A stretch of DNA of 64,000 nt from an uncultured Candidatus Saccharibacteria bacterium (GTDB taxonomy: Bacteria; Patescibacteriota; Minisyncoccia; Phycocordibacterales; UBA9973). The position numbers and the translations under genes were made by a program. The notes under the pieces were generated by a model, which saw only the letters and a program-made list of their open reading frames with translations, was not told the origin of the DNA and searched no databases. This document shows positions 38,577 through 63,182 of the stretch, piece after piece; position 1 is the first letter of the stretch, and every line of letters begins with the position of its first letter. The stretch lies in contig CAZNJI010000004.1 of the NCBI GenBank assembly GCA_964573395.1, forward strand, positions 27,379-91,378, read 5' to 3'.

Positions 38577-38644
38577 ATATAAAGTAAAACATGAAGTTGT
38601 GAATTATTCCAACCTTGGCTAGAATCAGTGTCAGTTCTTTCGAT

Positions 38645-38718
38645 GGGAGTATAGCTCAGTTGGTTAGAGCATCGAGCTTATACCTCGAGGGTCGATGGTT
38701 CGAGTCCATCTACTCCCA
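38645..38718 (+). tRNA. tRNA-Ile with anticodon UAU (reads AUA); CCA not encoded
   Basis: Cloverleaf folded by hand. Acceptor GGGAGTA/TACTCCC; D-stem GCTC/GAGC. Anticodon stem TCGAG/CTCGA with loop CTTATAC, so anticodon TAT. T-arm GATGG-TTCGAGT-CCATC. Discriminator A. Confidence 0.8.
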
Positions 38719-38829
38719 CCCGTTTGGATGCATTATCTGAAGGCTTACCTGACCTTTATCCACAAGCAGGATTCTGGCATCTGGTTTCTCTGTGGACTTT
38801 CGTATCTCTACTGCGATACAATAAAGGGC

Positions 38830-47491: not shown

Positions 47492-47581
47492 GGAGACGTG
47501 GCTGAGCTGGTCGAAAGCGCCTCACTGCTAACGAGGTAAGCCCGTTAAACGGCTTCGAGGGTTCGAATCCCTCCGTCTCCG
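47492..47581 (+). tRNA. tRNA-Ser(GCU) with a long variable arm; CCA not encoded
   Basis: Acceptor GGAGACG/CGTCTCC; D-arm GCTG-AGCTGGTCGAA-AGCG; anticodon loop CTGCTAA, so anticodon GCT; variable arm TAAGCCCGTTAAACGGCTTC; T-arm GAGGG-TTCGAAT-CCCTC; discriminator G. Confidence 0.85.
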
Positions 47582-48006
47582 CAAAGTCTTGAGCGAAGTG
47601 AAAGCTTTGCAGAGACGAGCAAAACAGGGTTTTGCGTGGGGGATTCGAACGACGGAGGCAATTGAGTATTCAAGAGAATACGAAGCCGAGTCGGTGCCCA
47701 GACTAACATTTTCGGGCGAGAAAATTTAAGTCGCGGGCGAATCCTCCGTCTCCGCCAACCCCCGACCCCCATGTTGGACACCTTCGATTTCCAACGCTAT
47801 CGCTGCCTTCCACCACAGGGGTTGGCGACAATCGCACAATGAGGCGCGATTGCGGAGACGGTGACATACTTGAGTATGTCACGGGAGGGATTCGAAAAGC
47901 GCAGCGATGTTTTGCGAGCCAGCAAAACCGCGAGCTGGGGTCGAGAAATTTTAAGAGCGACGGCGAATAAAATATTCGTGACCGAATATTCCCCCGTCTC
48001 CGCCAG
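47582..48006. repeat. Array of direct and inverted copies of the tRNA-Ser 3' end (att-scar-like repeats)
   Basis: Direct copies GGCGAATCCTCCGTCTCCGCCA at 47737-47758 and CGAATATTCCCCCGTCTCCGCCA at 47983-48006, each preceded by CGAGAAA(A)TTT(T)AAG. Minus-strand copy at 47855-47903, where GCGGAGACGG-TGACATACTTGAGTATGTCAC-GGGAGGGATTCGAA reverse-complements to the T-loop and acceptor end with a 22-bp palindrome inserted. Scrambled inverted fragment TGGGGGATTCGAACGACGGAGG at 47637-47660. Confidence 0.8.
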
Positions 48007-48084
48007 TACAGATTTCTTGACATTAGTTTTTATATATGATACAAAAATATTGAAAAAGCTTTTTCTAAAATTAAATTTTTAATT

Positions 48085-48306
48085 ATGCAAAAAAAGACGA
48101 ACACCCGTTTTAAAGACAATGATTTCAAGAAAGGAACGGGTAGTGACGGTAAGCCCTTTTGCTGTGTAATGGTCGCTCGTGATAAAGATGGAGTGGCTGT
48201 TCGTGACAGTAAGGATTCGAAAAAAAACACCCTTCACTTTAATAACAAGGAATGGGAAGTTTTTCTTCAAGCCATCAAGGATGGAGAATTTGAAGTAGTG
48301 AAATAA
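48085..48306 (+). CDS. DUF397-domain protein (73 aa)
   Basis: FKKGTGSDGKPFCCVMVARDKDGVAVRDSKDSKKNTLHFNNKEWEVFLQAIKDGEFE matches the DUF397 signature (..RDSKDP....L.F...EW.AF...VK.GEFD). This is a family mostly known from actinomycetes. Confidence 0.65.
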   Translation: MQKKTNTRFKDNDFKKGTGSDGKPFCCVMVARDKDGVAVRDSKDSKKNTLHFNNKEWEVFLQAIKDGEFEVVK

Positions 48307-48361
48307 TTTCTGATTTTAGAAAGTAGTTAATCACTACTTTCTTTTTTATTAAAAAAATATT

Positions 48362-48859
48362 ATGCATCAAAAAGATAAAAAACTTTATATTATTCCAGGA
48401 TACCGAGAATCTACTAGGAAAAAACCCTATAGACAGATAGCAGCCCTTGGGTTAAAGAAAAAATATAAAATCATTAAGATAAATCCAAAATGGAACGTAT
48501 CGTTAGTATCACAAATCGTTCCTGTGGGTAAGAATGATGTTATTTTTGGTTTTTCTCTCGGGGGTATTCTTGCTCTTTTGATTGCTCAAAAATTTGCTTG
48601 TAAAAAAGTAATACTTGCTTCTGCTACTACGCATAAATGTGCTAATGATTTAAAAACATTTCTACCTGCTGATATCATAAAAGATATTAGAAAAACAAAG
48701 AAAAATGTTGCAAGTAAGGTAATTAGGTTCTATGGAGAGTTCGAACGAGAGGATGCAATAAAATACTTACCGGAAGGTGCTTCTATACAGAAATTTATTT
48801 CAAAAACTGAGCACAATCTATCCGAGGCTTATATTGATGCTATTGATAAGGTACTTTAA
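48362..48859 (+). CDS. Small alpha/beta-fold serine hydrolase (RBBP9/YdeN-like esterase)
   Basis: Nucleophile elbow VIFGFSLGGILAL is a GxSxG motif; ~165 aa; very AT-rich gene. Confidence 0.5.
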   Translation: MHQKDKKLYIIPGYRESTRKKPYRQIAALGLKKKYKIIKINPKWNVSLVSQIVPVGKNDVIFGFSLGGILALLIAQKFACKKVILASATTHKCANDLKTFLPADIIKDIRKTKKNVASKVIRFYGEFEREDAIKYLPEGASIQKFISKTEHNLSEAYIDAIDKVL

Positions 48860-48996
48860 AAATTCTGAAAATAAATTTAACTTCGTACATATAGAGTCAA
48901 TAGTAAAAACTACCCATCTCTAATAAAAAATACTCGTTTGATTTCACACATAAAAAATCAAAAAAATCAGGGAAATATACTATACTATAAGGAACC

Positions 48997-51900
48997 ATGA
49001 GACGAATCCGCTCCGGCATATTTCGGCGTTACCGAATGACCATTCTCGGTTTGCTTGGAGCATTCCTTTTTTCGGCCATCATCTCATTTGCCGCTCCACC
49101 CAGCTCACCATACACTCCCGGAGAAACGCTTGATCCAACCTGTGCGCCGGGAGACGCGAATTGTTACGTTGAAAGTTCAAGCGGAGATTCTTTTTATACC
49201 GATGATGGCGCGCTAACTGGAAACAGAGCAATCGATTTAGATGGCAACACACTTAGTTTTACTGGCGGAACGGTTTTAATCGGCGGAACACCAACGTTTT
49301 CCGGCTTCTCAACAAATGGCGGGCTCCTTTATACAAACGGCTCCGGCGTCGTCTCACAAACAGGCGCAGGCACTGCCAACCAAGTGCTCCACGGCGGAAT
49401 CAATCCGACATACTCAGCAGTCTCGCTTTCTGCTGATGTTTCTGGTGATCTGCCGTTTGCAAACCTCGCCCAGATTACCGGCCTTTCAGTATTAGGTGTT
49501 ACCGGAACCAGCACCGCTGATGTTGCGGCAATTACCGGTACGGCAAATCAGGTGCTTCGCATTAATGCAGGCGGAACAGCGCTTGGTTTTGGCACGATAG
49601 CAAATGCAGGGCTTGCAAACTCCTCAATTAGTTTCGCGACCGGAACTTCAGGTACTAACGTGAACTGGTCTTCATCTCCCGTTTCTCTGGGCGGAACGGC
49701 AACCTTAAATATCCCCGATGCTAGTGCTTCGGCGCGAGGCTTGGTAACAACAACCGGCACGCAAACCTTTGCTGGAGACAAAATCTTTACCAGTGAAGTG
49801 GCAGTTGGCACCGATTTGGTAGACGGCCGATTCCAAGTAAGTTCTGCGGAGGGAAATTACCTGCGCATAGACAACGACAACGGAATTTACGGAATAGGAG
49901 ATCTCAGCGGCCTCTATAATGGCAGTTACTTTCAGATTGATGATGCTAATCACGAGATAGACCTTTGGGTTACCGGAGAAGTAACTGAAAATAATTTTGA
50001 AATTGGTGATGGGTATGGAGGTTTTTCTAGCTACTATCAAAATGGAACCGTAACAGCATCAAGCGAGTATTATTTGGAGGCACTTGGCGGAATTACTATT
50101 AGTTATGATTATGAAGATACGAATACAACTCAAGTTATAGATTCCGGCCTCCGTTTTGATGGAAATTTTATTGAGCTAAAAACAGAAGAAAATTATGATA
50201 ACGGAGCCGAAGTATCTTATGCTGGTCTTATGCTCAATCAAGCTTGGGCAGAGCTTGGTGCAAGTTATGAATTTAATAATTACGACTATGATGCAACGAT
50301 CCAAACCTCAAATGGTGGTACCGAGCTCTATTCTTCTCGAGAGTACAATGGAGAAACTGAAGCATTTTCAGAACTGAGCCTCAGACCTGATATTTCAGAA
50401 ATGATAACTCCTCGGTTAGGTATTGTGGGCACCTATGCCTATAACGACACGCTTCCGTTTCAAGACGCTCAGGTTGCAATTCTTGGCGGATTGGGGCCGG
50501 AAGAGATTACGAACGGCACTTTCACCGGCAATGCCAATGGATGGGTAACGGGAGGAGATGACGATACGCTTCCTTCTGATAACTGGGCGTATGGCACCAA
50601 TAATGCACAGCATACTCCCGGGGAAGATGTTGTTCTTCGCCAAGATGGTGAGCTGGTATACGGAGAAACATATAAAGCTCAATTTACTATTGGCGGCACA
50701 ACCGGTTGGGTACAGGTATGTTTGGGTGAGAACGGCGACTGTGCAGAGTTTGATGCAGGAGACGGTTCGGTAACTTTTACGGGAAGTTGGGAGGCGCTGA
50801 CCAGCAGTAAGATACTTTTTTACCCATCATCCGATTTCGACGGCACGATCGACAATGTGTCGGTAAAGCGCGTGTTCTCTAACCGGCATGCTGCGCTTGA
50901 TGTGCAAGGGAAAACCAACCTGCAGAATTTGGCGATATCAGGCACCGCCCTTGGCGATTTATATGGTGCCGAATTGATAACGAACGGAACCTTTACGGCT
51001 AATACAGATGGCTGGCAAACGGAAGATCCAGGGGGCGGTAATCCGGAAGCGCTTGATTCAAAAGGTTGGGCATATGATAACCGGGGATGGGTTGAATTTG
51101 ATTCGGGTACGCAACAATCAAATTACCTGACCCAAGTCATAGATTTGACTGAAGGCGCCCAATACCGTGTTTCGATAAAGGTACAAGATGGAGACGGAAG
51201 AGTATACGTAGCGCTTGGAGGGGATAATGATGCAAATTATATCGAGCTTAGTGGAGAGAGTGGTATTACTACTGTAACGCTTACTGCTGGCGCGGGTGAT
51301 TTTCTCTGGATTGTTCCTGACACGGACAATAACGGCGATTGGTTTAGTGGTTTTATTGATGAAGTATCCGTAAAAGAGGTTACCGGAGAAGCGGCGCTGA
51401 GTGTTACTGGCAACACCGTGCTACATAGTTTGGCCGGAAACGGGAGCGGTTTTGTTTCGGTTGATAACGATGGCGTGCTTTCGTGGAGTGCAGGCGGAGC
51501 CGGCGGGGTGGGGGGTAGCAATACGCAGCTGCAATTCAACGACGATGGCAACATGGCTGGCGCAACTGATGTTCTCTATAGTAAAGGAGCTTCCGGTAGT
51601 TCAGGCGATTCATTGGGCGACGAAGAAATAACTAATGGCTCTGTTACTGGAAATACAAATGGCTGGACGGCCATTAATGGCGACCCACTCCCAGCGAACA
51701 ACTGGTCTTATGGCAGTAACAACCTTAATTACGACCCAAACGGAGGAAACCCAGTTGCACAACTAGGAGAACTTGTGGAAGGAGCAACCTACAGAATTAC
51801 ATTTACAGTAACTGGAACTGCTGGAACAATAAGCGTAAGACTCGATGGTGACATTGATGCTGAATATGCTTATAACGCCGGCACAGTAACACTAGATAAA

Positions 51901-54735
51901 ATCTATGGATTCGATAACGGTACGAAAATTGTTTTTTCTCCATCAAATGATTTTGATGGAAATCTTGATGATATCTCAGTAAAAAGAGTTAATCTTGAAG
52001 AGGGTGCAGAGCAAATTACGAATGGCACCTTTACCGGCAATGCTGATGATTGGGAGTCGAATGGTAATCCGCTTCCTGACGGAAACTGGGCATATGGCAG
52101 TAATAATGTAGAGCACACCTCAGGTTCTATAGAACCTGTCTATCAATTCGGAAACTTGGTTGAAGGTGGAAGGTATATTGTTCGGTTTGATATTGGAGGA
52201 ACTACTGGAAGCGTTAATGCTTGTCTAGGCAACGGCGATTGTGAACAATTTGCTGCAGGCGATGGGTCAGTGGAATTTTTAGGTCACTGGCAAGATCTTT
52301 TTGGTATTTCAATCTATTTTGAACCAACTACTGATTTTGACGGCACGATTGACAATGTTTCAGTAAAACCAATTCTCTATGAGGAAGGCAGTGAAGAGTT
52401 AACGAACGGCACCTTTACTGGCAATGGGGATGATTGGGTCACAGATACTAATGATGTTCTTCCTTCAAATGATTGGGCCTATAGCAGTAACAATGTCGAG
52501 CATACTGCAGGTACTGCAGTTCGGTTTAGACAGGATGGAGAATTAACACAAGATGGTCACTATATCGCTCGGTTTAATATTGGAGGAACAACAGGAACGG
52601 TTGAGGCATGCTTGGGAGAGAACGGAGACTGCTTCGAAGTTAGTGCCGGAGACGGGGATGTAACATTTATTGGAACATGGAGAGCGATATTAAGCAGTAA
52701 AATATTATTTGATCCATCAAGTGATTTTGACGGTACCATCGATAATGTGTCAGTAAAAAGCATCACCTATTCTGCTAGTGAGACTACTACTACTAGCCAG
52801 GCAAAATTCGGCATCGGCTATACCGATATTGCAGAATTTACGAGCGCAAAAGTTTCAGTGAGCGGGCTTGGCGACGAAGAGTTGACGAATGGGAAGTTTA
52901 CCGGCAACGCAACTGGATGGGACCTCGGATCAAATTGGGATTATGACGATAACACTGTTGTGCACGACCCGGTTGGAGAGACTATTCTTTCTCAGGACGG
53001 AAGTTTAACTGATGATGTTACCTATCATGTCAGTTTTACAATGACAGGAACTGACGGGATAGTTACGGTTTATTTGGATGAAAGTGCTTCGTATACGTTC
53101 ACAGGAGATACCAATGGTACAACAAGAACGTTTTCATTTACGCATACTTATGACGATTCGAGTGCTCTCGATACAGAAATAATTGTATTTTTTCCCGATA
53201 GTGATTTTGACGGTACGATAGACAATGTCTCAATTCGGGAGGTTCTAAATTCAGATTCAATCAATGCAATCGGAAACATTGCTATTAAAGGAGAGTTAGA
53301 CGTAGAACATAGAGTTACCCAAGATGCTGATTTATACGGCGTGCGAAGCGAGGTATCTCTTAATGATACGGATAATGGAAGCTTGAATTATCAGTACGGA
53401 GGCTACTTTAGTGCCACAAGCTTGGGAGAAGTAGGTTCGTACGGCGTATACGCAGTATCGGAAACTGATGGCGAGATAAGCGTCGGCGTATACGGGCGAG
53501 GCGCACGCGGCGTTCATGCGGTATCAACGTCAGATGATGCCGGCGCGGCTCTGTACGCTGAATCAATCAATGGGCCAGTTTTATACGGAGAAACTGCAAG
53601 AGTGGCCGCAACAGGAGAAGTTTTTCCAGCATTGTATGTACAGAATACGGGAACGTTTGATACTACTGCAGAGGAACTTATTTCCTACGGTGCGGTTCTT
53701 GATACCACTACCACTCGATCTGCCGGTGCAAATGATTTAATTAATATCGGATTAGCGATTTCCGTGAGTGGAGGCCAGGAAAATTACGCGCTCATAACTA
53801 CTGGCGGTAATGTTGGTATTGGAAATAGTACTCCCAATGTGCTACTCCATGTGGGAGATGATTCAGTAACAGATTTCACTGATTTGCTTACCCTAGAAGA
53901 CGAAGACTCAATTTGTAGTTTCAATGCTGATTCTGGTTCGCCAACATGCGGATCTGATTTGACGCTGAAAAAAGACATCGAAAGCTTGAATACGGTCGAC
54001 ATCCTGATGAAAGTTTCGCTCTTGAACCCTGTGTCATATCGCTGGAAGACGGATGAAGAGGGCAAGCCAGTACAGTTCGGATTCATTGCCCAGGAAGTAG
54101 AAGAGCAGTTTCCGGAGCTGGTAACCGAACGCGAATGGATAGACGGCAGTACGAAAAAATTCCTCAACATTGGCGGGCTGATGCCATATGCGATCGGTGC
54201 CATAAAAGAGTTGAATTTGAAGGTAGCGAATATTGAAAATATTTCTGCGCCCGAAAACTCGTTCGCGGCGATATTGAAAGCGTGGTTTGCCGATGCGGCA
54301 AATGCGATTGAAGAATTCGTAGCAACGAGAATTAAAGCTCGCGAAACATTCTGCATCAATGAAACCTGTTTGACTGAAACGGAATTGAAAGCACTGCTTG
54401 AAAATGCCGGTATTGCAATTCCGCCGCCGGCAGTTACTGAATCGGAAAATAACGAAGCACCTGAAGAAGAAATGCCCGAACCTACGCCGAGCGAGACAGA
54501 AACTGAAACCGAAGACCTTGTGTCTCCAGTAGAAAATCCGCCTACCGAAGAACCAATAGAAGAAGAGTTATCTGACGGGCCAGTCGAAGAGTCTGGCACT
54601 CCTCTGGAGCAACCGGTGGAGGAATATACAGAAGATACGCCAACTCCTCCAGAGAATTCTCCTGAACCAGAACCAGGTGAACAAGAAGAAAGTAATTCTG
54701 GAGAGACGCCAGCAGTTCCTCCGGCTACTCCGTAA
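48997..54735 (+). CDS. Giant surface protein (1912 aa): N-terminal TM anchor, Gly/Thr-rich fibre-like region, six tandem ~125-aa beta-sandwich modules, C-terminal S74-type intramolecular chaperone domain, acidic Pro/Glu-rich tail
   Basis: N-terminal TM helix. Six modules with the pattern EE.TNG.FTGN..GW...........W.Y......H.........Q.G.L......Y...F...GTTG.V..CLG.NGDC..F.AGDG.V.F.G.W........I.F.PS.DFDGTIDNVSVK. C-terminal LTLKKDIESLNTVDILMKVSLLNPVSYRWKTDEEGKPVQFGFIAQEVEEQFPELV matches the peptidase-S74 chaperone domain of phage tail fibres. Confidence 0.75.
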   Translation: MRRIRSGIFRRYRMTILGLLGAFLFSAIISFAAPPSSPYTPGETLDPTCAPGDANCYVESSSGDSFYTDDGALTGNRAIDLDGNTLSFTGGTVLIGGTPTFSGFSTNGGLLYTNGSGVVSQTGAGTANQVLHGGINPTYSAVSLSADVSGDLPFANLAQITGLSVLGVTGTSTADVAAITGTANQVLRINAGGTALGFGTIANAGLANSSISFATGTSGTNVNWSSSPVSLGGTATLNIPDASASARGLVTTTGTQTFAGDKIFTSEVAVGTDLVDGRFQVSSAEGNYLRIDNDNGIYGIGDLSGLYNGSYFQIDDANHEIDLWVTGEVTENNFEIGDGYGGFSSYYQNGTVTASSEYYLEALGGITISYDYEDTNTTQVIDSGLRFDGNFIELKTEENYDNGAEVSYAGLMLNQAWAELGASYEFNNYDYDATIQTSNGGTELYSSREYNGETEAFSELSLRPDISEMITPRLGIVGTYAYNDTLPFQDAQVAILGGLGPEEITNGTFTGNANGWVTGGDDDTLPSDNWAYGTNNAQHTPGEDVVLRQDGELVYGETYKAQFTIGGTTGWVQVCLGENGDCAEFDAGDGSVTFTGSWEALTSSKILFYPSSDFDGTIDNVSVKRVFSNRHAALDVQGKTNLQNLAISGTALGDLYGAELITNGTFTANTDGWQTEDPGGGNPEALDSKGWAYDNRGWVEFDSGTQQSNYLTQVIDLTEGAQYRVSIKVQDGDGRVYVALGGDNDANYIELSGESGITTVTLTAGAGDFLWIVPDTDNNGDWFSGFIDEVSVKEVTGEAALSVTGNTVLHSLAGNGSGFVSVDNDGVLSWSAGGAGGVGGSNTQLQFNDDGNMAGATDVLYSKGASGSSGDSLGDEEITNGSVTGNTNGWTAINGDPLPANNWSYGSNNLNYDPNGGNPVAQLGELVEGATYRITFTVTGTAGTISVRLDGDIDAEYAYNAGTVTLDKIYGFDNGTKIVFSPSNDFDGNLDDISVKRVNLEEGAEQITNGTFTGNADDWESNGNPLPDGNWAYGSNNVEHTSGSIEPVYQFGNLVEGGRYIVRFDIGGTTGSVNACLGNGDCEQFAAGDGSVEFLGHWQDLFGISIYFEPTTDFDGTIDNVSVKPILYEEGSEELTNGTFTGNGDDWVTDTNDVLPSNDWAYSSNNVEHTAGTAVRFRQDGELTQDGHYIARFNIGGTTGTVEACLGENGDCFEVSAGDGDVTFIGTWRAILSSKILFDPSSDFDGTIDNVSVKSITYSASETTTTSQAKFGIGYTDIAEFTSAKVSVSGLGDEELTNGKFTGNATGWDLGSNWDYDDNTVVHDPVGETILSQDGSLTDDVTYHVSFTMTGTDGIVTVYLDESASYTFTGDTNGTTRTFSFTHTYDDSSALDTEIIVFFPDSDFDGTIDNVSIREVLNSDSINAIGNIAIKGELDVEHRVTQDADLYGVRSEVSLNDTDNGSLNYQYGGYFSATSLGEVGSYGVYAVSETDGEISVGVYGRGARGVHAVSTSDDAGAALYAESINGPVLYGETARVAATGEVFPALYVQNTGTFDTTAEELISYGAVLDTTTTRSAGANDLINIGLAISVSGGQENYALITTGGNVGIGNSTPNVLLHVGDDSVTDFTDLLTLEDEDSICSFNADSGSPTCGSDLTLKKDIESLNTVDILMKVSLLNPVSYRWKTDEEGKPVQFGFIAQEVEEQFPELVTEREWIDGSTKKFLNIGGLMPYAIGAIKELNLKVANIENISAPENSFAAILKAWFADAANAIEEFVATRIKARETFCINETCLTETELKALLENAGIAIPPPAVTESENNEAPEEEMPEPTPSETETETEDLVSPVENPPTEEPIEEELSDGPVEESGTPLEQPVEEYTEDTPTPPENSPEPEPGEQEESNSGETPAVPPATP
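50500..53245 (+). repeat. Six tandem ~375-bp coding repeats (putative carbohydrate-binding beta-sandwich modules) inside the giant gene
   Basis: The EE(I/L)TNGTFTGN...DFDGTIDNVSVK unit recurs six times. Confidence 0.75.
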
Positions 54736-54743
54736 ACTTGCGC

Positions 54744-55415
54744 TTACTTTTCAAGCGGCGCATGCGCCAATGCGAATCCGATCGATCGCTTTGCTCCCGC
54801 CATTTCAAGCGCTTTTCGGGCGGCAGAGAGCGTTGCTCCGGTAGTTACCACGTCATCAACGCATATATACATAGTGCGAGGGTTCGTTTCTGCGCCAAAC
54901 GAAAATATCTGCTCCATGTTCCGAAGCCGCGCTTCGCGATTTTGCATTTTGGTCTGCGGCAACGCCTGCTTCGTTTTTTGCAGAGCGTTTTGAATCGATA
55001 TATGTTCAAACGGCAGCGTTTTCTTGAGCGCTTTTGCGATGACGAGCGATTGGTTGAATCCGCGCGCCCGGCCGTGCTGTGTGCTGGCAGGAATCGGAAC
55101 AAGAACGATGCGCGTACCTGCATCCGTTTCCATCCGTTCATCGAGATGGCTAATGAGCACGTCGCCTGCAAGGCGGGAAAGCAGCCGTGCGCCTTGGGTG
55201 CGATGGCGGTACTTCAAATCGTGGATGCAGGTTTTTATGAGCGTGTCCCGATAGGAGAAAGCGCCCAAAACGCCAGGTATGCCGGTTTCCCGCGCCGGTG
55301 CTAATCGAGCGCTGCAGGGAGAGCAAAGATAAAAGCCATGCCTACCGCAACCGAGGCACTTTGGCGGAAAGAGAAAATCGAGGAGGCGGCCGAGCATAGA
55401 AGAAGCACGATGCAT
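54744..55415 (-). CDS. comF: ComF-family protein (competence protein F / phosphoribosyltransferase-like)
   Basis: N-terminal Cys4 motif (CLGCG...CSPC) and C-terminal PRTase motif YICVDDVVTTGATL. Start taken at the internal Met (MHRASSM) because the ORF-track start would overlap divergent pilM. Confidence 0.7.
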   Translation of the reverse strand: MHRASSMLGRLLDFLFPPKCLGCGRHGFYLCSPCSARLAPARETGIPGVLGAFSYRDTLIKTCIHDLKYRHRTQGARLLSRLAGDVLISHLDERMETDAGTRIVLVPIPASTQHGRARGFNQSLVIAKALKKTLPFEHISIQNALQKTKQALPQTKMQNREARLRNMEQIFSFGAETNPRTMYICVDDVVTTGATLSAARKALEMAGAKRSIGFALAHAPLEK

Positions 55416-55434: not shown

Positions 55435-56562
55435 ATGGAAAAACTGATTTCGGCAATGAAAAGAATGTTTGCCTTCGGAGGAGGCGATAATAATGTCGCC
55501 ATTGGCATTGATATTGGCACCTCTTCAATCAAAGTAGTGCAAATCAAAAAAGAGGGAGGCCGGGCAGTGCTCGATACCTATGGTGCGCTCGCGCTTGGCC
55601 CGTATGCAGACGAAAAGGGAATGATCGGCCAGGTAACGAATCTCTCTCCCGAGCAGCTTGCCCGGGCGCTGAAGGACGTACTGCGGGAAACGAACATTAC
55701 GAGCAAGAATGCGGTGCTCGGCATTCCATCCATTTCATGCATCATTTTCATCATCCAGCTGCCGGCAGTCATCAATGAATCCGAATTTGCGACCGTCATT
55801 CCAAACGAAGCGAAGAAATTCATTCCGGTTCCGCTTTCTGACGTCACGCTCGATTGGTACGTGATTCCGCGCCGCGAAGACTCGAGTACGCAGGTTGACG
55901 CGCTTGCCGCCAGCGGCGGAGAGCTGAAAGTTTCCATTCTGGTCGTCGCGACGCTCAATGATACGCTGGTGAAATACACGAGCACGCTCCAAAAAACAGG
56001 GCTGCCGGTCGATGCGCTTGAGATTGACGTTTTTTCAAGCATCCGCTCGATCCTCTCACGGGAACTTTCGCCGGTACTGCTCATGGACATTGGCGCATCG
56101 AAAACAAAGCTCGCAATCGTAGAGCATGGCATCGTTGAGACGTTCCATTTGGTAAACAAAGGAGGGCAGGACATTACCCTTGGCATTGCGCGGAGCTTGG
56201 AAATTCCGTTCGATCGGGCTGAAGTAATTAAAAAAGAGCACGGGCTGGTGCCGGGAACGGATTATCCGAAGCTTCCCGAGATCATCAAGGGCCAACTGGC
56301 AACCATTATTACGGAGACGAACACCATTTTGCTCGCGTACGAGAAGCGCTATAACAAAAATGTCTCGAAGGTCATCTTTACGGGGGGCGGCGCGCTGACT
56401 CGCGGCATCTTTGAATATGCGCGAGAGCAGTTTTCAGCAGAAGTAGAGCTGGCAAATCCGTTCTCGAAGGTTGATGCGCCGGTATTTTTGCAAGGCGTGC
56501 TCAAAGCAACTGGCCCTGAGTTTGCCATTGCCATCGGATTGGCGCTGAAGCGGCTGCAATAA
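55435..56562 (+). CDS. pilM: Type IV pilus assembly protein PilM (actin-like ATPase)
   Basis: VAIGIDIGTSSIKVVQIK start and actin/FtsA-like fold motifs; followed by pilN/O-like genes. Confidence 0.85.
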   Translation: MEKLISAMKRMFAFGGGDNNVAIGIDIGTSSIKVVQIKKEGGRAVLDTYGALALGPYADEKGMIGQVTNLSPEQLARALKDVLRETNITSKNAVLGIPSISCIIFIIQLPAVINESEFATVIPNEAKKFIPVPLSDVTLDWYVIPRREDSSTQVDALAASGGELKVSILVVATLNDTLVKYTSTLQKTGLPVDALEIDVFSSIRSILSRELSPVLLMDIGASKTKLAIVEHGIVETFHLVNKGGQDITLGIARSLEIPFDRAEVIKKEHGLVPGTDYPKLPEIIKGQLATIITETNTILLAYEKRYNKNVSKVIFTGGGALTRGIFEYAREQFSAEVELANPFSKVDAPVFLQGVLKATGPEFAIAIGLALKRLQ

Positions 56563-56617
56563 GTGCAAAACTTTGTTTGTTTGCGTTTTCTCCGTGTTAT
56601 ACTTTTATGAGCAGCGC

Positions 56618-57274
56618 ATGGATCCAATCATCCCAACATCATTTATTCCAAAACGGCCAATCGTAACCGAACCGGCTGCGAATGTTTCTCGACGCTCGTC
56701 GAGTATTTGGTCGCTCCTTATTCCGGTTATCTTAGCCGCAACGCTTTTGGCGGCAGGCGGAGTATTCCTCTTCGAGCGCCAGCTTGAATCTCAAGTACAG
56801 CAGATGGAGAAAAAAATCAGCGCGGCGCGCGAATCATTCGGCAGCGACTTCATTACCCAGATGAAAACGCTCGACAACCGCATTACGGCCATCAAGAAAC
56901 TCATCCAAAGCCACGTCATCGTAACGCCTATTTTCCAAGCACTCCAAGATGCAACACTCCGTTCGGTGCAGTACAAATCATTTACCTATACGCTCGGAAC
57001 CGATGAAGTGAGCAAGCGCCGGGTTGTTAGAGTCGAAATGAACGGTACGGCACGCAATTACGAAACCATTGCGCTTCAGTCGGATGCGTTTGCAAAAAGC
57101 AAATTCATCAAAGATGCCGTATTTGCTAATTTGGTCGTCGACGAAAGAAAGGGAACGATTAATTTCAAGCTTAATTTCAACATTGACGCCGCAGCGGTGT
57201 CGTATCAGTCATACATTGATGCCTTGGCACGGCCAACGCCTGGCCAGTCACCGGTTGACGGAGTTACCCTATGA
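56618..57274 (+). CDS. pilN: PilN-like bitopic pilus assembly protein
   Basis: Single TM helix then coiled-coil; operon position. ATG 56618 is in frame with ORF 56573. Confidence 0.6.
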   Translation: MDPIIPTSFIPKRPIVTEPAANVSRRSSSIWSLLIPVILAATLLAAGGVFLFERQLESQVQQMEKKISAARESFGSDFITQMKTLDNRITAIKKLIQSHVIVTPIFQALQDATLRSVQYKSFTYTLGTDEVSKRRVVRVEMNGTARNYETIALQSDAFAKSKFIKDAVFANLVVDERKGTINFKLNFNIDAAAVSYQSYIDALARPTPGQSPVDGVTL

Positions 57275-57825
57275 TGCGATTTTTCACTTTCATTATTATT
57301 CTTGGCGCAAGCGTTGCAACCATCGTGCTGTTTGTGAATCCGCGTTATGCCCACATTAAAGAGCTCCGCGCGCAGGTGCGTTCCTACGACACGGCGTTGC
57401 AAAATGCCGAAGAACTTAAACGTGAGCGCGAAGAACTGCAGGCAAAGTACAATGGCATTCGGGTAGAAGACATCCATGCAGTTGAAACGGTGCTTCCTGA
57501 TAACGTTGATAACATACGGCTCATTATTCAAATGAATTCAATCGCGCTCAAAACGGGCATGTCATCGCTTCGAGACGTAAACTACAGCACCGAAGCAAAA
57601 ACGAATGTGGAAAAAAGCAAGGAGAGCGAACTCTACGGAGAATTTGAAACGAGTTTTTCCACTACCGGATCCTATAAGAATTTCTTGAACTTCATTGCTT
57701 CGCTTGAGCAGAACCTTCGCTTGGTAGACATTACGAAAGTGGCGTTCGAGGTGGTTGAAGATCCGACGAAGGTCGATAACAATAAATATACCGTTACGCT
57801 CAAAACGTATTGGCTGAAAAATTAA
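57271..57825 (+). CDS. pilO: PilO-like pilus assembly protein
   Basis: TM helix plus coiled-coil (IKELRAQVRSYDTALQNAEELKREREELQ); 4-bp overlap with the previous gene. Confidence 0.6.
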   Translation: MMRFFTFIIILGASVATIVLFVNPRYAHIKELRAQVRSYDTALQNAEELKREREELQAKYNGIRVEDIHAVETVLPDNVDNIRLIIQMNSIALKTGMSSLRDVNYSTEAKTNVEKSKESELYGEFETSFSTTGSYKNFLNFIASLEQNLRLVDITKVAFEVVEDPTKVDNNKYTVTLKTYWLKN

Positions 57826-57826
57826 T

Positions 57827-58510
57827 ATGATATCAAAACAGGTCAAAAAAATACTCATCGGGCTCGCAGTGGTTGCTCTTGCCATTTTGGGAATTGCCTA
57901 TGGCGGAAGAGGCAGCACCAGTCAGGAATCAACGGGGCTTACCAGCAGCCGAGTTGACGGCCCCATTGAAGAAGGGGTGGTTGCGCAGAGTAATGATGAA
58001 TTTCTGAGCATGCTCTTAAACGTTCGAAACATTACCATCGATACGTCTCTATTTAAAAACGAAGCATTTCTTTACCTCAAAGACCACCCGATTGTATTGG
58101 GAACGGATACCATCGGCCGCCCAAACCCATTCGCTCCGGTTGGAACCGATCCGTTGTACCAGAATGTTTCAGTGAACCAGCCAACCAGCCAGCAGTTCGG
58201 CTCAACTGCGCTTCCGGCAACAGGTATCGAAACGCTTCAGCCCGGCAAGGTGCGCGCAACGAGTGCCGAACTGGGAGCAAGCGTAAACTTTCCTGCAGGA
58301 ACCGGCCCTGCGGTAGTAACGTTTGAATACGGTACCAGTGAAGCGTCGTTTGTCCCAACTGAATCGCTCATCATTAATGCGGCGGGAACGGTAACATTGC
58401 CAGTCTCAGGACTTTTGAGAAATACGAAATACTTTGTTCGCGCATCGCTCGGTTACGGAACGCAAACGCTTCGAGGGTCGATTATGAGCTTTACGACGCC
58501 TGCGCAGTAG
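57827..58510 (+). CDS. Hypothetical bitopic protein in the pilus operon (PilP/PilX-like?)
   Basis: TM anchor then extracellular beta-rich domain; operon position only. Confidence 0.4.
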   Translation: MISKQVKKILIGLAVVALAILGIAYGGRGSTSQESTGLTSSRVDGPIEEGVVAQSNDEFLSMLLNVRNITIDTSLFKNEAFLYLKDHPIVLGTDTIGRPNPFAPVGTDPLYQNVSVNQPTSQQFGSTALPATGIETLQPGKVRATSAELGASVNFPAGTGPAVVTFEYGTSEASFVPTESLIINAAGTVTLPVSGLLRNTKYFVRASLGYGTQTLRGSIMSFTTPAQ

Positions 58511-58530
58511 GCACGCTACTCTTTATTTAA

Positions 58531-60261
58531 ATGACCTTTCTCGATTTTCTGTTAGAGCAGAATATTATCACTCCTTCCCAGCACCAGGACATATTGACGA
58601 GACTTGATACGGAGTTCCATGGCAGCGTTACGAACGCTGTCGCTGCACTTGGCATTCCTACGGAAACGCTGACGCAGGCAAAAGCAACATTTTACCGCGT
58701 GCCGTATCAAAAAGTAAATTCCCAGAACGTCCCGTTTGAAATCATGCGGTTTATTGAAGAGGATGCCGCACGGCATTACCGCTTCGTGCCGATCGCGTTT
58801 TCCGATGACGTGCTTTCGGTTGGCATTACCGAACCTGAAAATATTGAAGGAATGAATGCGCTCCAGTTCATTTCTGCAAAACTGAATGTGCCATTCAAGG
58901 TATTTCTCATTTCAGAAAACGATTTTAACGACGTGCTGCAGAATTACCGGGGCGTAACCCATGAGGTAGACCGCGCGCTGGATGACTTGAATACCGAACT
59001 GACGGAAGCAAGCGCAGAAGTCTCGAAAGAAAAAACGCAAAAGCAGAAAGTAGAAGAAAAAATCAACGCTGAAAAAATCATTGAAGACGCACCGATCATC
59101 AAGATCGTGGCGGTGATCATCAACCACGCCGTTGAAGGATCCGCGTCAGACATTCATATTGAGCATACCGGGGAAAAAGTGAAAGTGCGCTACCGCGTTG
59201 ACGGAGTGCTGCACACGACGCTCATCATGCCTCTCAATACGTTCGACGGCATCATTGCCCGCATTAAAATCTTGGCGAAACTGCGCCTCGATGAAAAACG
59301 AAAACCGCAAGACGGAAGCTTTGCGACGATTGTCGAAGGAAGAAAGATTGAATTCCGTGTCTCAACCTTTCCGGCATACTACGGCGAAAAAGTGGTAATG
59401 CGTATTCTCGATTCCGAGCGGGGAGTAGTAGCACTTGAGTCATTGAATCTTTCTGAAACCAACTACAAGCTAATTAATGACGCACTCAGTAAACCGCACG
59501 GCCTCGTACTTATTACCGGCCCAACTGGATCTGGTAAATCAACAACGCTCTATTCGATGCTCAGTAAAATCGATCGGGAAGGATACAATGTTGTTTCTTT
59601 GGAAGATCCGGTTGAGTATCAGGTGGCTGGTGTTTCGCAATCGCAAGTACTGCCCGAGATTGGCTATACGTTTGCAACCGGTCTGCGCTCCATTTTGCGC
59701 CAAGACCCAGACATCATCATGGTGGGGGAAATCCGCGATAAGGAAACCGCACAGCTTGCGATCCAGGCGTCGCTTACCGGACACTTGGTATTCTCAACCC
59801 TCCACACCAATACTTCGATTGGCGCAATTCCTCGATTGATCGACATGGGAGTTGACCCGTACCTCATTGCGCCAACCTTGAAACTGGTGATTGCGCAGCG
59901 TCTGGCTCGCCGGGTCCACCCGAGTGCGCGAAAGAAGATTCCGATAGATAATGCGACAAAAGAATTCGTTAAAAAACAGTTTTCCGATCTTCCGGAAGCG
60001 TTCTTGAAGACGCTGCCGATCGGGGAGTCGATGTATGAGATTGTTCCATCTTCAGAATGCCCATCGGGGACGAGGGGCCGCATTGCCGTATTTGAAATGT
60101 TCGAAGTGGATAACGATCTGCAGGAGCTTATATTGAAAGGCCCGGGCGAGCAGGAGCTTTTTGAGATGCTTCGCAAAAAGGGCATGCTGACGATTCGCGA
60201 AGATGCCCTCTTGAAGGCGCTCCAGGGGGAGATTATGATGCAGGAAGTGTATAGCTTCTAG
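58531..60261 (+). CDS. pilB: Type IV pilus assembly ATPase PilB (GspE family)
   Basis: Walker A LITGPTGSGKSTTLYSML; Asp box; His box GHLVFSTLHTN; tetracysteine-like CPSG...; N-terminal GspE_N domain. Confidence 0.93.
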   Translation: MTFLDFLLEQNIITPSQHQDILTRLDTEFHGSVTNAVAALGIPTETLTQAKATFYRVPYQKVNSQNVPFEIMRFIEEDAARHYRFVPIAFSDDVLSVGITEPENIEGMNALQFISAKLNVPFKVFLISENDFNDVLQNYRGVTHEVDRALDDLNTELTEASAEVSKEKTQKQKVEEKINAEKIIEDAPIIKIVAVIINHAVEGSASDIHIEHTGEKVKVRYRVDGVLHTTLIMPLNTFDGIIARIKILAKLRLDEKRKPQDGSFATIVEGRKIEFRVSTFPAYYGEKVVMRILDSERGVVALESLNLSETNYKLINDALSKPHGLVLITGPTGSGKSTTLYSMLSKIDREGYNVVSLEDPVEYQVAGVSQSQVLPEIGYTFATGLRSILRQDPDIIMVGEIRDKETAQLAIQASLTGHLVFSTLHTNTSIGAIPRLIDMGVDPYLIAPTLKLVIAQRLARRVHPSARKKIPIDNATKEFVKKQFSDLPEAFLKTLPIGESMYEIVPSSECPSGTRGRIAVFEMFEVDNDLQELILKGPGEQELFEMLRKKGMLTIREDALLKALQGEIMMQEVYSF

Positions 60262-60268
60262 TCCGGGT

Positions 60269-60372
60269 CCAGCCGTAGTTTTGCGTTATATAGAGAGCGC
60301 GTGAGTAGTTCTTATTGGGGTGCGCAGTCTTCTTAAATTAACAAGCCGCAGGACTAGCAAAACTACGGCTGG
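60269..60372. promoter_or_regulatory. 16-bp perfect inverted repeat (CCAGCCGTAGTTTTGC ... GCAAAACTACGGCTGG, 72-bp spacer) abutting a TATAAT -10 box
   Basis: Arms 60269-60284 and 60357-60372 are exact reverse complements. TATAAT at 60377-60382 lies 11 bp before the REC start codon. Confidence 0.6.
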
Positions 60373-60392
60373 GCGGTATAATAAAAAGCAGT

Positions 60393-60791
60393 ATGGAAAA
60401 AGAAAAGAACAAGAAAACGATTTTTATTGTTGATGATGACAGTTTCCTCCTCGACATGTACGCGCTTCGCTTCACCCAAGCAGGGTTTCAGGTTGAAACC
60501 GCAATGAATGCCGAACAGGCGCTTGAAAAGCTCCGTGCCGGATTAGTTCCCGACGTGATGCTCCTTGACATCGTGATGCCAATCATGGACGGCTTCGAGC
60601 TTTTAGAGGCGATTAACGCCGAAAAGCTTATTTCCGGATCGGTAAGAATCATTCTCTCTAACCTCGGCCAGCAGCAGGATTTTGACCGCGGCAAAGAGCT
60701 TGGCGCGGATAGTTACATCGTGAAGGCAAACAGCACTCCGTCGGAGGTCGTTGCGCACGTAAACGACGTCTTAAAAGAGCACGGAAAATAA
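60393..60791 (+). CDS. Single-domain response regulator (REC only) embedded in the pilus operon (PilH/PilG-like)
   Basis: IFIVDDD...MLLDIVMPIMDGF...IILSNLGQQQD...K motifs. Confidence 0.85.
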   Translation: MEKEKNKKTIFIVDDDSFLLDMYALRFTQAGFQVETAMNAEQALEKLRAGLVPDVMLLDIVMPIMDGFELLEAINAEKLISGSVRIILSNLGQQQDFDRGKELGADSYIVKANSTPSEVVAHVNDVLKEHGK

Positions 60792-60793
60792 CT

Positions 60794-61852
60794 ATGCAAC
60801 ACCATAAGGAGTTAGAAGAATTGTTCGAGATTTTGGTCCGAGAAGGAGGATCTGATCTGTACATTGCATCCGGACGGTTTCCAACCATTCGCGTTAATGG
60901 CGAACTCGTTTTTTTGATGACCCGAGCGCAGTTTACCGAAGATGATGTCCGGTCGATATTGAAACTGCTTATTTCAAAAACTCATTATGAACATTTTGAA
61001 AAAGAACAGGAAGTAGATTTTTCATACGAATATAAAAAAGAGGCGCGTTTGCGCGGAAACGCCTTCATTCAGCGCGGTGTCTGTTCAATCATCATGCGCC
61101 TGATTCCGAAAGTGAAAACGCTTGAGGAGCTCAATTTGCCGCCGATTCTTGCTGATTTTGCCCGAAAGCGGCAAGGGTTCTTCCTGGTGGTCGGACCGGT
61201 CGGTTCCGGAAAATCTTCAACCATGGCTTCGATGGTCAATATCATCAACCAAGAGCGGGCCGCTCATATCTTAACGGTCGAAGATCCGGTCGAGTATGTC
61301 TACGACCAAGGGAAATCGATTATCGACCAGCGGGAAGTAGGCATTGATACGAAAGATTTTGCTTCAGCGCTCAAGTCGGCATTCCGGCAGGACATGAATG
61401 TCATCTTGATTGGAGAAATGAGAAACCCGGAAACAATCTCAAGCGCCGTAACCGCCGCTGAAACGGGGCACCTGGTGCTCTCGACGCTCCACACGAACAC
61501 TGCATCGCAAACTATCGACCGCATCATCGACTCATTCCCGCCTGCACAGCAAGACCAGATTCGCATCCAGCTTGCCGCCTCTTTGGTCGGAGTATTTTCA
61601 CAGCGTTTGGTGCCGAAGGTAACCGGAGGCCGCATTCCGGCGTACGAGCTCATGATGAACAACAACGCGGTTGCGAACCTGATCCGCGAAAAACGAACGC
61701 ATGAAATCGACATCGTGATTGAAACCGGGTATGAGCAGGGAATGGTCGACATGAACCGATCGCTGGTCGACTTAGTTCGCCGCGGAGAAATTACCATCGA
61801 AAATGCGTACGCATTTTCGACGAATCCGAAGACGCTTGAGCGACTTCTATAA
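60794..61852 (+). CDS. pilT: Twitching-motility retraction ATPase PilT
   Basis: Walker A FLVVGPVGSGKSSTMASM; GHLVLSTLHTN; AIRNLIRE-like ANLIREKRTHEI motif. Confidence 0.92.
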   Translation: MQHHKELEELFEILVREGGSDLYIASGRFPTIRVNGELVFLMTRAQFTEDDVRSILKLLISKTHYEHFEKEQEVDFSYEYKKEARLRGNAFIQRGVCSIIMRLIPKVKTLEELNLPPILADFARKRQGFFLVVGPVGSGKSSTMASMVNIINQERAAHILTVEDPVEYVYDQGKSIIDQREVGIDTKDFASALKSAFRQDMNVILIGEMRNPETISSAVTAAETGHLVLSTLHTNTASQTIDRIIDSFPPAQQDQIRIQLAASLVGVFSQRLVPKVTGGRIPAYELMMNNNAVANLIREKRTHEIDIVIETGYEQGMVDMNRSLVDLVRRGEITIENAYAFSTNPKTLERLL

Positions 61853-61854
61853 TC

Positions 61855-63063
61855 ATGATCTATCGCTACACTGCAGTAACTGAAAAAGGGGAAAAACGGG
61901 ACGGCGTCATCGAAGCGGTGAGCCGCGAACTTGCCGTTGCCGGCTTGCAGCGCCGCGGGCTGATCGTTACCTCGCTGAAGACCGAAGCGGAGTCGAAGAA
62001 ATGGTTTGAAATAACAATCTTCGAGAAAGTGCCGATGAAAGAGATTGTGATTCTTTCCCGGCAGATGGCAACGCTGTTCGAAGCCCAAGTCTCCGCGCTC
62101 AAGGCGTTTAATCTGCTTGCAGGGAACACTGAAAACAGGCTCCTGCAGCAGAAGCTCACCCAGGTAGTTGCCGACTTGCAGGCCGGCGCCTCAATTGCAA
62201 ACGCGCTCGGAAAGCACACCGATGTTTTTTCCGAATTTTACGTCAACATGGTTCGTGCCGGGGAAGAGTCGGGTAAATTAACGGATGTATTCAACTATCT
62301 TGCCGACTATCTCGATCGCCAATATGCGCTCACCTCAAAAACGAAACACGCGTTGGTGTACCCATCGTTCGTGATTGGTATTTTCATTTTGGTGATGTCG
62401 CTTATGTTTACCGTCGTCATTCCGAAGCTCTCTGTTATTATTCTTGAAAGCGGGCAGGAAATTCCTATTTACACGCGCATGGTTATTGCTACCAGTAACT
62501 TTTTTGTGAACTACGGCTTATACTTGCTTATTTTCCTTGTTGTACTCGGTTTTTACTTCTTCCAGCTTTCTCGTTCTCCAAAAGGGAAAGCGTACCTTGA
62601 TGAAGCGAAGTTGACGTTTCCAGTGTTTGGAAACCTGTACCGAAAGCTCTACCTTGCCCGAATTGCAGACAACATGGACACGATGCTTTCGGCCGGCATC
62701 CCGATCGTTCGCGCCATTGAAATTACGGCAACGGTTGTTGGCAATCGCCGCTACCAGGGAATTATGACCGAAGCAATGCAGGCAGTGAAAAGCGGTAAGG
62801 CATTCTCGCAGTCGCTCGAAGGGCATCCGAAGGAAATTCCGGCGCTTATGCCGCAGATTATTCGCGTAGGAGAAGAAACCGGAAGCCTGGGCTCAATTTT
62901 GAAGATGCTTGCGAAGTTCTACAAGCGTGAAGTTGATGAGGCGATTGATACGCTGGTTGGCCTTATTGAACCATTCATGATTATTGTGCTCGGGTTAGGG
63001 GTAGGGCTCCTTCTGGTCTCGGTATTGGTGCCAATTTATAATATTGCGGGAAGTATCAGCTAG
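61855..63063 (+). CDS. pilC: Type IV pilus platform protein PilC (GspF family)
   Basis: Two GspF repeats and three TM segments; operon position. Confidence 0.9.
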   Translation: MIYRYTAVTEKGEKRDGVIEAVSRELAVAGLQRRGLIVTSLKTEAESKKWFEITIFEKVPMKEIVILSRQMATLFEAQVSALKAFNLLAGNTENRLLQQKLTQVVADLQAGASIANALGKHTDVFSEFYVNMVRAGEESGKLTDVFNYLADYLDRQYALTSKTKHALVYPSFVIGIFILVMSLMFTVVIPKLSVIILESGQEIPIYTRMVIATSNFFVNYGLYLLIFLVVLGFYFFQLSRSPKGKAYLDEAKLTFPVFGNLYRKLYLARIADNMDTMLSAGIPIVRAIEITATVVGNRRYQGIMTEAMQAVKSGKAFSQSLEGHPKEIPALMPQIIRVGEETGSLGSILKMLAKFYKREVDEAIDTLVGLIEPFMIIVLGLGVGLLLVSVLVPIYNIAGSIS

Positions 63064-63068
63064 TTTCG

Positions 63069-63121
63069 TCATAGTTTTTCACACATGTTGTTGTGAAAAA
63101 CTATGATTGGGGGTGTATAAT
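63069..63121 (+). promoter_or_regulatory. 15-bp perfect palindrome (TCATAGTTTTTCACA-N8-TGTGAAAAACTATGA) plus TATAAT -10 upstream of the major pilin
   Basis: Arms 63069-63083 and 63092-63106; TATAAT at 63116-63121. Confidence 0.6.
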
Positions 63122-63182
63122 AAAAGGGTTACAAAGCGATTTGTAATAATCGATTATTAGCAGATACGAAAAAAAGTTTTTT

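Follow-up and report, generated by a model that had tools for sequence, protein, structure and literature searches.

What does a giant protein that combines an array of repeated modules with a chaperone domain known from phage tail fibres do in a bacterium of the Candidate Phyla Radiation (CPR)? This question is raised by the stretch of DNA analysed here, a window of 64,000 nucleotides from contig CAZNJI010000004.1 (assembly GCA_964573395.1, positions 27,379 to 91,378), in which an uninterrupted open reading frame (ORF) at 48997-54735 on the forward strand encodes, from an ATG start codon, a protein of 1912 amino acids, referred to below as the fibre protein. It consists of an N-terminal hydrophobic segment, six modules of ~125 residues, a Peptidase_S74 domain and a 112-residue acidic tail rich in Pro and Glu. 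We consider it probable that the protein is a secreted, homotrimeric cell-surface fibre built on the plan of phage tail fibres and of the S74-type mosaic adhesive trimers (MAT) of Bdellovibrio, and that it binds polysaccharide, likely on the envelope of a partner or host cell. What the analysis shows directly is which domains the protein contains, that its catalytic dyad is intact, how the modules fold, that the gene lies on the chromosome of a CPR bacterium and that related proteins in the Patescibacteria form a mosaic family; we infer that the chain is secreted, trimerises, is cleaved and binds glycans, and what its target is. Attachment to a host or partner cell would follow from the analogy with phage fibres and with the Bdellovibrio MAT (PMC10769870). 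The parts of the protein lie in the window as follows.

48997-49095 (+): signal segment, residues 1-33; a basic N-region followed by a 19-residue hydrophobic segment
49096-49176 (+): leader motif PPSSPYTPGETLDPTCAPGDANCYV, residues 34-60, holding the Cys pair C49/C56
49177-49896 (+): tail-fibre-type repeats (ANQVL...; ASASARGLVTTTGTQTFAGDKIF), residues 61-300, with matches in other large proteins
49897-50499 (+): acidic region rich in Tyr, Asn and Gly, residues 301-501, no fold assigned
50500-50874 (+): module 1, residues 502-626, beta-sandwich resembling a carbohydrate-binding module (CBM), Cys pair, 190 bits
50971-51381 (+): module 2, residues 659-795, the most divergent, no Cys pair, ends in WFSGFIDEVSVK, 138 bits
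51382-51621 (+): 80-residue linker, residues 796-875, containing the fibre motif NTQLQFNDDGNMAG
51622-51990 (+): module 3, residues 876-998, no Cys pair, 172 bits
52009-52374 (+): module 4, residues 1005-1126, Cys pair, 178 bits
52393-52764 (+): module 5, residues 1133-1256, Cys pair, the module chosen for modelling
52876-53244 (+): module 6, residues 1294-1416, no Cys pair, ends in DFDGTIDNVSIR, 143 bits
53245-53952 (+): pre-chaperone fibre tip rich in Gly, Ser and Tyr, residues 1417-1652, with PHROG tail-fibre matches
53953-54276 (+): Peptidase S74 / intramolecular chaperone, residues 1653-1760, assigned by Pfam, dyad and fold
54277-54396 (+): helical extension with Cys loop (WFADAANAIEEF...FCINETCLTETELKALL), residues 1761-1800, recurring in relatives
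54397-54735 (+): acidic, low-complexity tail rich in Pro, Glu and Thr, residues 1801-1912 and stop codon, assigned by composition

The ORF had already been noticed at these coordinates by an earlier reading of the DNA made without database searches (the sequence-only reading), and it holds up. The identical 1912-residue protein is on record twice, on a 91.8-kb NCBI contig and in an independent Logan assembly of run SRR15237806, and an exact look-up returns it as a singleton cluster without a name. An AGGA stands 3 nt 5' of the ATG, and the preceding 137 nt are AT-rich and non-coding. Promoter-like matches (10 against a shuffled expectation of 13.6) and terminator-like matches (9 against 7.3) are at or near chance. 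Over the fibre gene (48000-54000 of the window) the G+C content falls to 0.40-0.46, as opposed to ~0.49-0.51 in the flanks, and the GC skew reaches its strongest positive values in the window (0.17-0.18); the low G+C content and the skew could reflect amino-acid composition or a past horizontal acquisition.

At the C-terminus, the Pfam model Peptidase_S74 (PF13884) matches residues 1653-1710 over its whole length (profile positions 1-58 of 58) and scores 57.4 bits, well over the cut-off of 22. The domain opens with S1653-D-L-T-L-K1658, which HMMER pairs with SDRRIK of gp37, the long-tail-fibre chaperone of phage S16 (6f45), and also with the equivalent, mutated site of the MyRF ICA (7dc3), and among the related S74 domains the catalytic Ser is kept in 16 of 16 and the Lys in 14 of 16. 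The Ser-Lys dyad of S74 domains is known from K1F and T5 to cut N-terminally to the Ser after the trimer has formed, and self-cleavage was shown for Bdellovibrio Bd3182 at S782 (PMC10769870). Cleavage of the fibre protein is predicted between G1652 and S1653, with S1653 and K1658 as the catalytic residues. Folds were compared by means of an AlphaFold monomer model of residues 1540-1800, in which the predicted local distance difference test (pLDDT) gives 76-93 over residues ~1650-1745 and which is usable for the S74 part only. With this model, Foldseek found the MyRF ICA (7dc3; E 6.6e-6, template modelling score 0.62 on the target, 29% identity) and the K1F chaperone (3gw6; E 0.025), and phmmer matched the C-terminal domain to 7dc3 with an E value of 6.6e-4. 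The S74 domain, its Ser-Lys dyad and its fold, which the sequence-only reading had predicted or proposed to check, are in place. Among 50,697 GenBank phage records, matches were obtained for residues 1646-1757 only, in tail fibres and in one annotated endo-N-acetylneuraminidase.

The segments on either side of the S74 domain have matches of their own. Upstream, the PHROG family phrog_1980 'tail fiber protein' spans residues 1444-1748 (E 1.4e-13) and phrog_5481 residues 1589-1747; C1640 and C1651 stand just N-terminal of the predicted cleavage site, and residues 1417-1652 would become the distal end of the fibre once cleaved. Downstream, the pattern W(F/L)AD..N.I ... C(V/I)....C.TE..L follows the S74 domain in the related proteins P0016, P0018, P0021, P0032, P0033, P0044, P0036 and P0011 and in those of loci L003 and L008. 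The 112-residue tail, described as acidic and rich in Pro and Glu from the start, contains 34 Asp and Glu, 24 Pro and neither Lys nor Arg, and most related CPR S74 fibres end in comparable low-complexity tails. The Cys loop and the tail are a family feature that would be freed together with the chaperone as a fragment of 260 residues.

The six modules were delimited by motif search and alignment, and each scores 138-190 bits against the profile made from the six, far above chance, which agrees with the six copies of ~125 residues counted from the sequence alone. From module to module, identity is 35-66% for the protein (35-44% between module 2 and the remaining ones) and 53-67% for the DNA, and Tandem Repeats Finder reports no module-length DNA tandem repeat, just three short arrays with periods of 9-18 nt. 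The modules are therefore old duplications, and a change of copy number by slippage is unlikely. They had been called tandem, which is correct for six homologous copies but not in the strict head-to-tail sense, since linkers of 32, 80, 6, 6 and 37 residues separate them; the motif of the 80-residue linker (HQLQFNDEG / HQLQFNDGG) also stands before the module blocks of the related protein P0063. Likewise, the paired Cys and the signature DFDGTIDNVSVK, first taken as marks of the repeat, apply to modules 1, 4 and 5 (C575/C582, C1076/C1082 and C1205/C1212; DFDGTIDNVSVK exact), whereas the other three modules lack the pair and read DFDGNLDDISVK, DFDGTIDNVSIR and WFSGFIDEVSVK. In the wider module family, the Cys pair is present in 9 of 226 modules.

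No model in Pfam or NCBIfam, CBM models included, fits the modules in the fibre protein or in ten other family members; the module had been left without a family by the sequence-only reading, and no match to a well-characterised unrelated family was found when one was looked for. A CshA-type fibrillar adhesin repeat was rejected, as CshA_repeat (PF19076) matches the end of module 3 with 32 bits at profile positions 51-90 of 103 only and NCBIfam TIGR04225 reaches 34 bits against a cut-off of 60; the CshA structure 6szc compares with the module profile at E 0.56. Matches to DUF7604, weak and below the cut-off on module 6, and to DUF7619 were discarded as partial or below cut-off. The six-copy profile found nothing significant in the PDB (best E 0.013, a flagellin), and a profile of 82 module sequences gave partial hints only, for example a partial match to 4mgq; a weak DUF642 match was seen in P0063. 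The fold assignment therefore rests on the AlphaFold model of module 5, which shows a beta-jelly-roll fold and gave the following scores in the comparison with solved structures.

CBM16, 2zew: 13.0
Porphyran-binding CBM, 8xmz: 12.9
CBM61, 2xom: 12.6
CBM4-2, 4bj0: 12.1
Hyaluronan-binding module, 4d0q: 12.0

On this model, the assignment as a type B CBM-like jelly roll is solid, and of the two folds suggested beforehand, carbohydrate-binding or laminin-G-like, the former is borne out as a CBM-type beta-sandwich (CBM4/16/22/61) and laminin G is not. Judged by their fold, the modules would bind glycans. An exhaustive HMMER search of 1.84 billion representatives with the six-copy profile yielded 3221 proteins at E <= 1e-3, 545 of them at E <= 1e-10, with one to ten modules each (family consensus e..tNG.F.....gWt....gW.y....g...Q....g..Y.v....t.G....g..t....p...f.G.iDnvSv). 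The module is a large uncurated domain family without a Pfam model, and its predicted glycan binding makes these 3221 representative proteins testable as a new CBM family.

By its features, the N-terminal end would be that of an exported protein. Six Arg within 13 residues precede the 19-residue hydrophobic segment, which ends in SFA|AP and lies in the sole hydrophobic stretch of the fibre protein (residues ~12-35), and AxA-type sites also close the segment in relatives (IFA|AP, AYA|VP, VFA|TP). This reads as a cleavable Sec signal peptide or as an uncleaved signal anchor, and the signal peptide fits at least as well; of the transmembrane anchor proposed from the sequence alone, the single N-terminal hydrophobic segment stands, while the conserved AxA-type site leaves a stable anchor not established. 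The leader that follows has the consensus Y-x-PGETLDP-x-C-x-PGD-x-NC-x-V in the fibre protein and its relatives and is common to P0042, P0016, P0018, P0021, P0044, P0036, P0011, P0023, both S74 fibre ORFs of L002 (55% and 41% identity to the fibre protein over the N-terminus) and L003. We propose that it forms the cell-proximal end of the mature fibre. Residues ~95-300 receive up to 82 high-scoring segment pairs from ~60 other large proteins with 40-77% identity, often several per protein, and the Pfam phage receptor-binding-protein motif BppL_N and the repeat DUF5907 match the corresponding stretches of relatives. For residues 301-501, searches of Pfam, PHROG and the PDB found nothing, and hardly any homologue spans them. 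A trimeric autotransporter was set aside, as the C-terminus is an S74 domain and there is no C-terminal beta-barrel anchor.

On the reading favoured here, Sec would export the chain via the N-terminal segment, which would be cut at SFA|AP or retained as an anchor, and the Cys-loop leader (residues 34-60) would remain close to the cell. The S74 chaperone (residues 1653-~1760) would register three chains, and the fibre would fold from the C-terminus. Ser1653, activated by Lys1658, would then cut G1652|S1653 and release 260 residues in one fragment, from the chaperone through the Cys loop to the acidic tail. In its mature form, the fibre would comprise three chains of ~1620 residues (~170 kDa per chain) with a tail-fibre-like tip and, along the shaft, six CBM4/16/22-type modules per chain or 18 per fibre, which would grip polysaccharide multivalently, most likely on the envelope of a partner or host. 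Type B CBMs of low affinity gain avidity through multivalency, so that an array of such modules would suit attachment to a surface of repeating polysaccharide, for example the envelope of another cell.

The relatives of the fibre protein share its ends and differ in the middle. A full-length search returned nothing that covers residues 450-1450; all 61 other matches concern the fibre repeats and/or the S74 end, the shared parts being residues ~20-300 and 1550-1900, and a scan of the JGI metagenomes with the full protein found no relative. The module, searched for in one genome per species with the six-copy alignment as the query, is present in seven genomes, one from the Verrucomicrobiota and the other six from Patescibacteria or without classification; four of the seven, all of them Patescibacteria, have it in one ORF with an S74 domain.

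L002, Paceibacterota: 1658 residues, module and S74, leader 55% identical
L003: 2427 residues, module and S74
L004, Saccharibacteria: 958 residues, module and S74
L008, Paceibacterota: 1676 residues, module and S74

Where further relatives keep this leader and the S74 end, the centre consists of LVIVD propellers, lactonase-like propellers, a YadA head, collagen repeats or RCC1 repeats. Going by these domain matches, the CPR fibres are a mosaic family with conserved ends and exchanged centres. At L002 (DASZSN010000026.1, 6908-15264), two S74 fibre genes of 1658 and 1109 residues stand in tandem, with a nearly identical signal and leader (MRRMHTFFWRHRRTILALLVVFFYTITVAYAVPPS...) and different bodies, and this pair is a local duplication and diversification of a fibre. 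The closest module array is that of P0063, a protein of 2021 residues with 7-8 modules at L010 (GCA_037975565.1, JBBCBH010010894.1, 10001-17211), followed 585 bp downstream by the one-module ORF P0071. The same locus has a Y1 transposase just upstream and a sortase and SpaA-like pilin locus 7-10 kb upstream. The module also occurs on nine viral contigs of IMG/VR (L011-L019) with 28-35% identity, in proteins of 700-1400 residues whose function is unknown and which have at most weak PHROG matches (phrog_30593, unknown function); on L011, the module gene lies near a gene with a tail-protein match. Some of the CPR relatives are labelled 'tail fiber domain-containing protein' by NCBI, and a search of a literature library for Patescibacteria or CPR together with S74 or tail fibres found no paper that studies such proteins.

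The Bdellovibrio MAT, the nearest of the characterised systems, offers a precedent for this design in a cellular organism. It comprises 21 surface fibres, 13 of which end in S74 with SDxxxK. All begin with a signal peptide and a conserved N-domain, and their tips are swapped from member to member; self-cleavage was demonstrated for Bd3182, and prey glycans are bound by one MAT fibre, Bd2439 being a glycan binder (PMC10769870). The fibre protein resembles the S74 subgroup of the MAT (Bd3182, Caulton et al. 2024) in being encoded on the chromosome of a bacterium living on other bacteria, in the sequence of signal-type segment, family-conserved N-terminal element, long fibre and C-terminal S74 domain with SDxxxK, and in belonging to a mosaic family with conserved ends and swapped binding domains. 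However, none of the solved MAT tips is detectably similar to it in sequence (phmmer with the whole protein against all PDB chains at E <= 0.1 returned MyRF only), its N-terminal element looks different, a short Cys-loop motif and not a beta-rich N-domain of ~130 residues, and in place of a single tip it has an internal array of six CBM-like domains. It is also about twice as long, adds a Cys loop and an acidic tail after the chaperone and comes from a CPR host. The likeness suggests, by analogy, that the fibre protein works like an S74-type MAT, and owing to the lack of similarity to the solved tips we do not file it as a member.

Phage fibres and tailspikes (K1F endosialidase 3GW6, the L-shaped fibre of T5, S16 gp37 6F45) have in common with it the S74 fold, the Ser-Lys dyad, a tail-fibre-like segment before the S74 domain and, in its relatives, the BppL_N/DUF5907 repeats, and CBM-like folds are also present as side domains in TSP4 of CBA120 and gp52 of Kp7. 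Unlike these, the fibre protein is chromosomal and has a Sec-type signal, it has no virion-attachment domain, and its six-module array occurs in none of the GenBank phage records searched. The modules differ from type B CBM16, CBM4, CBM22 and CBM61 by an identity of 9-22% and in not being attached to a glycoside hydrolase. The MyRF ICA is the best solved match of the C-terminal domain in both structure and sequence; myelin regulatory factor is, in contrast, a eukaryotic membrane-bound transcription factor, and only the chaperone/protease domain is held in common.

An alternative reading is that of a tail-fibre gene which belongs to a phage, prophage or tailocin and is lodged in the chromosome. 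The S74 domain and the fibre repeats are typical of phages, the module is found on the nine IMG/VR contigs, a tRNA-Ser gene (47492-47582) lies 1.4 kb upstream, and the G+C content of 0.40-0.46 as opposed to ~0.50 and the strong GC skew would also fit. However, the window contains no phage genes, and no integrase, capsid, tail, baseplate or lysis gene is near the fibre gene, whose neighbours are housekeeping, competence and pilus genes: RecG, a histidine kinase, the tRNA-Ser, a ComF-like gene and the genes from pilM to a pilin. Further genes of the window encode EF-Tu, ribosomal proteins, SecY, methionine aminopeptidase, TruB, tmRNA, FtsH and a copper ATPase; an S74 domain, a leader motif and an ORF with modules each occur in the window just once. 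The fibre gene lies in the core chromosome and not in a prophage. Its export signal would be needless for virion proteins, which are assembled in the cytoplasm, and the same leader is present on many chromosomal CPR paralogues, so that we regard a phage origin of this kind as highly improbable. The organism itself is, by the relatives of its RecG, a Paceibacteria/Nomurabacteria-like CPR bacterium, as the sequence-only reading had supposed: the closest RecG matches overall have 63-68% identity, and the named relatives at ~60-63% are Candidatus Nomurabacteria, Pacebacteria and 'Patescibacteria group'.

If the protein is a bacterial fibre, it could still do more, or less, than bind a partner. As a tailspike-type depolymerase of surface polysaccharide, it would use the modules to target an unrecognised catalytic part in residues 301-501 or 1417-1652 to a capsule, extracellular polymeric substance or cell-wall polymer, so that the bacterium would degrade or harvest the polymer beyond merely binding it. 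The S74 domain was first described on endosialidases and matches here an annotated phage endo-N-acetylneuraminidase, characterised CBM4/16/22 modules almost always come attached to glycoside hydrolases, and the two regions of about 200 residues are without an assigned fold. Against this stand the lack of a catalytic-domain match in Pfam, NCBIfam, PHROG and PDB, the match of the pre-S74 region to tail-fibre and not to tailspike families, its length of ~235 residues, which is short for a beta-helix depolymerase, and the exchange of the centre for propellers or collagen in relatives, the pattern of binding fibres; we think such an enzyme quite improbable. A component of the envelope or matrix that recognises no partner, be it a fibre that gives structure to the coat of the cell itself or one that binds to itself, to the biofilm, to environmental polysaccharide or to mineral-bound organic matter, is compatible with a ligand that the sequence does not identify and with the great breadth of the module family, whose 3221 representative proteins include many that are short or have an unrelated architecture. 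The module is also present in a Verrucomicrobiota genome and is therefore not tied to episymbiosis, and some Parcubacteria are reported as free-living (PMC12625730). Self-cleaving fibres with swappable centres are, however, known from organisms and particles that recognise foreign surfaces (phages and the Bdellovibrio MAT), and the mosaic differences between CPR relatives are more in keeping with target recognition that diversifies than with a structural role that is conserved, which leaves this explanation unlikely in our view.

Several observations also weigh against a partner-binding fibre. The fibre protein is a singleton for which no orthologue was found. The jelly-roll beta-sandwich is shared by domains that do not bind glycans, among them those of the MAM and ephrin-receptor type, and the modules fall outside the curated CBM families, with ~15% identity to any solved CBM. 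Residues 301-501 could harbour an activity that alters the picture. P0063 has no S74 domain in its whole 26-kb locus, including ~10 kb downstream, and its ORF appears frameshifted, with an out-of-character tail rich in Arg, Ser and Pro. In the monomer model, the fibre tip (residues 1540-1640) has a pLDDT of 28-50, which is expected for an intertwined trimer seen as a monomer, and cleavage of the signal peptide would leave the mature fibre without a recognised means of staying on the cell.

How CPR bacteria or Patescibacteria recognise and hold their hosts is largely unknown, and work on host attachment has so far centred on type IV pili (PMC12206443, PMC9894109). The fibre protein is a concrete candidate for a determinant of specificity. 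So far, experiments have demonstrated the S74-fibre design in phages and in one bacterium, the predator Bdellovibrio, and nowhere else; as a principle of bacterial fibres, it would be extended to a second, very different lineage that lives on other cells. What is new in this case is the occurrence in a CPR bacterium, together with the leader motif, the array of six modules of an uncurated CBM-like family inside the chain and the extension after the chaperone. More tentatively, mosaic S74-capped fibres might serve throughout the CPR as host-recognition devices of ultra-small episymbionts, with the leader attaching the fibre, the exchanged centres setting the host range and the module representing a new CBM family shared with uncultivated phages, a generalisation that we put forward as possible and still somewhat doubtful. 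If it is true, these mosaic fibres would be to cells what receptor-binding proteins are to phages.

The sequence-only reading placed the fibre gene next to a type IV pilus locus, which is correct as to adjacency. Downstream of the fibre gene lie:

54744-55415 (-): ComF-like gene (DZR_2 double zinc ribbon and phosphoribosyltransferase), convergent with the fibre gene
55435-63680 (+): type IV pilus cluster, from pilM to a pilin

The stop codons of the fibre gene and the ComF-like gene are 8 bp apart, which leaves no room for an intergenic terminator, and because this convergent gene intervenes, the fibre gene adjoins the pilus cluster outside its transcription unit. The cluster runs pilM, a pilN-like gene (below threshold), pilO, an unknown gene of 227 residues, pilB, pilT, pilC and a pilin with an N-methylation motif. 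In the relatives with enough flanking sequence (L002, L003, L008, L010), no pilus cluster stands beside the fibre; the only pil-type match there is a weak partial PilM (35% over 78 residues, E 7e-7) ~5 kb from the L002 fibre. The sole neighbour in common with relatives is a histidine kinase homologue at L002 and L003, that of L002 being 50% identical to the kinase of the window. A functional tie between fibre and pilus has adjacency as its one argument and is not supported.

Some further features of the window deserve mention. A second predicted surface protein of very large size, encoded by an ORF of 1409 residues at 38695-42924 (+), shows no relationship to the fibre. It carries PG_binding_1, four Big_7 Ig-like domains and two DUF4082 and ends in a DUF4832-like part, and a homologous stretch (43% identity) lies near the fibre gene of L003. 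Its listed ATG (38695) is overlapped by a tRNA-Ile gene (38644-38721, +) with the anticodon TAT (UAU), which is unusual in bacteria, and the ORF therefore probably starts further downstream. A tmRNA gene at 31560-31944 (-) is detected by Rfam with 103 bits and was not reported by ARAGORN. Finally, a protein of 911 residues at 4009-6744 (+) has as its only match an LCAT-like lipase domain (lecithin:cholesterol acyltransferase family), which is unexpected in a reduced CPR genome.

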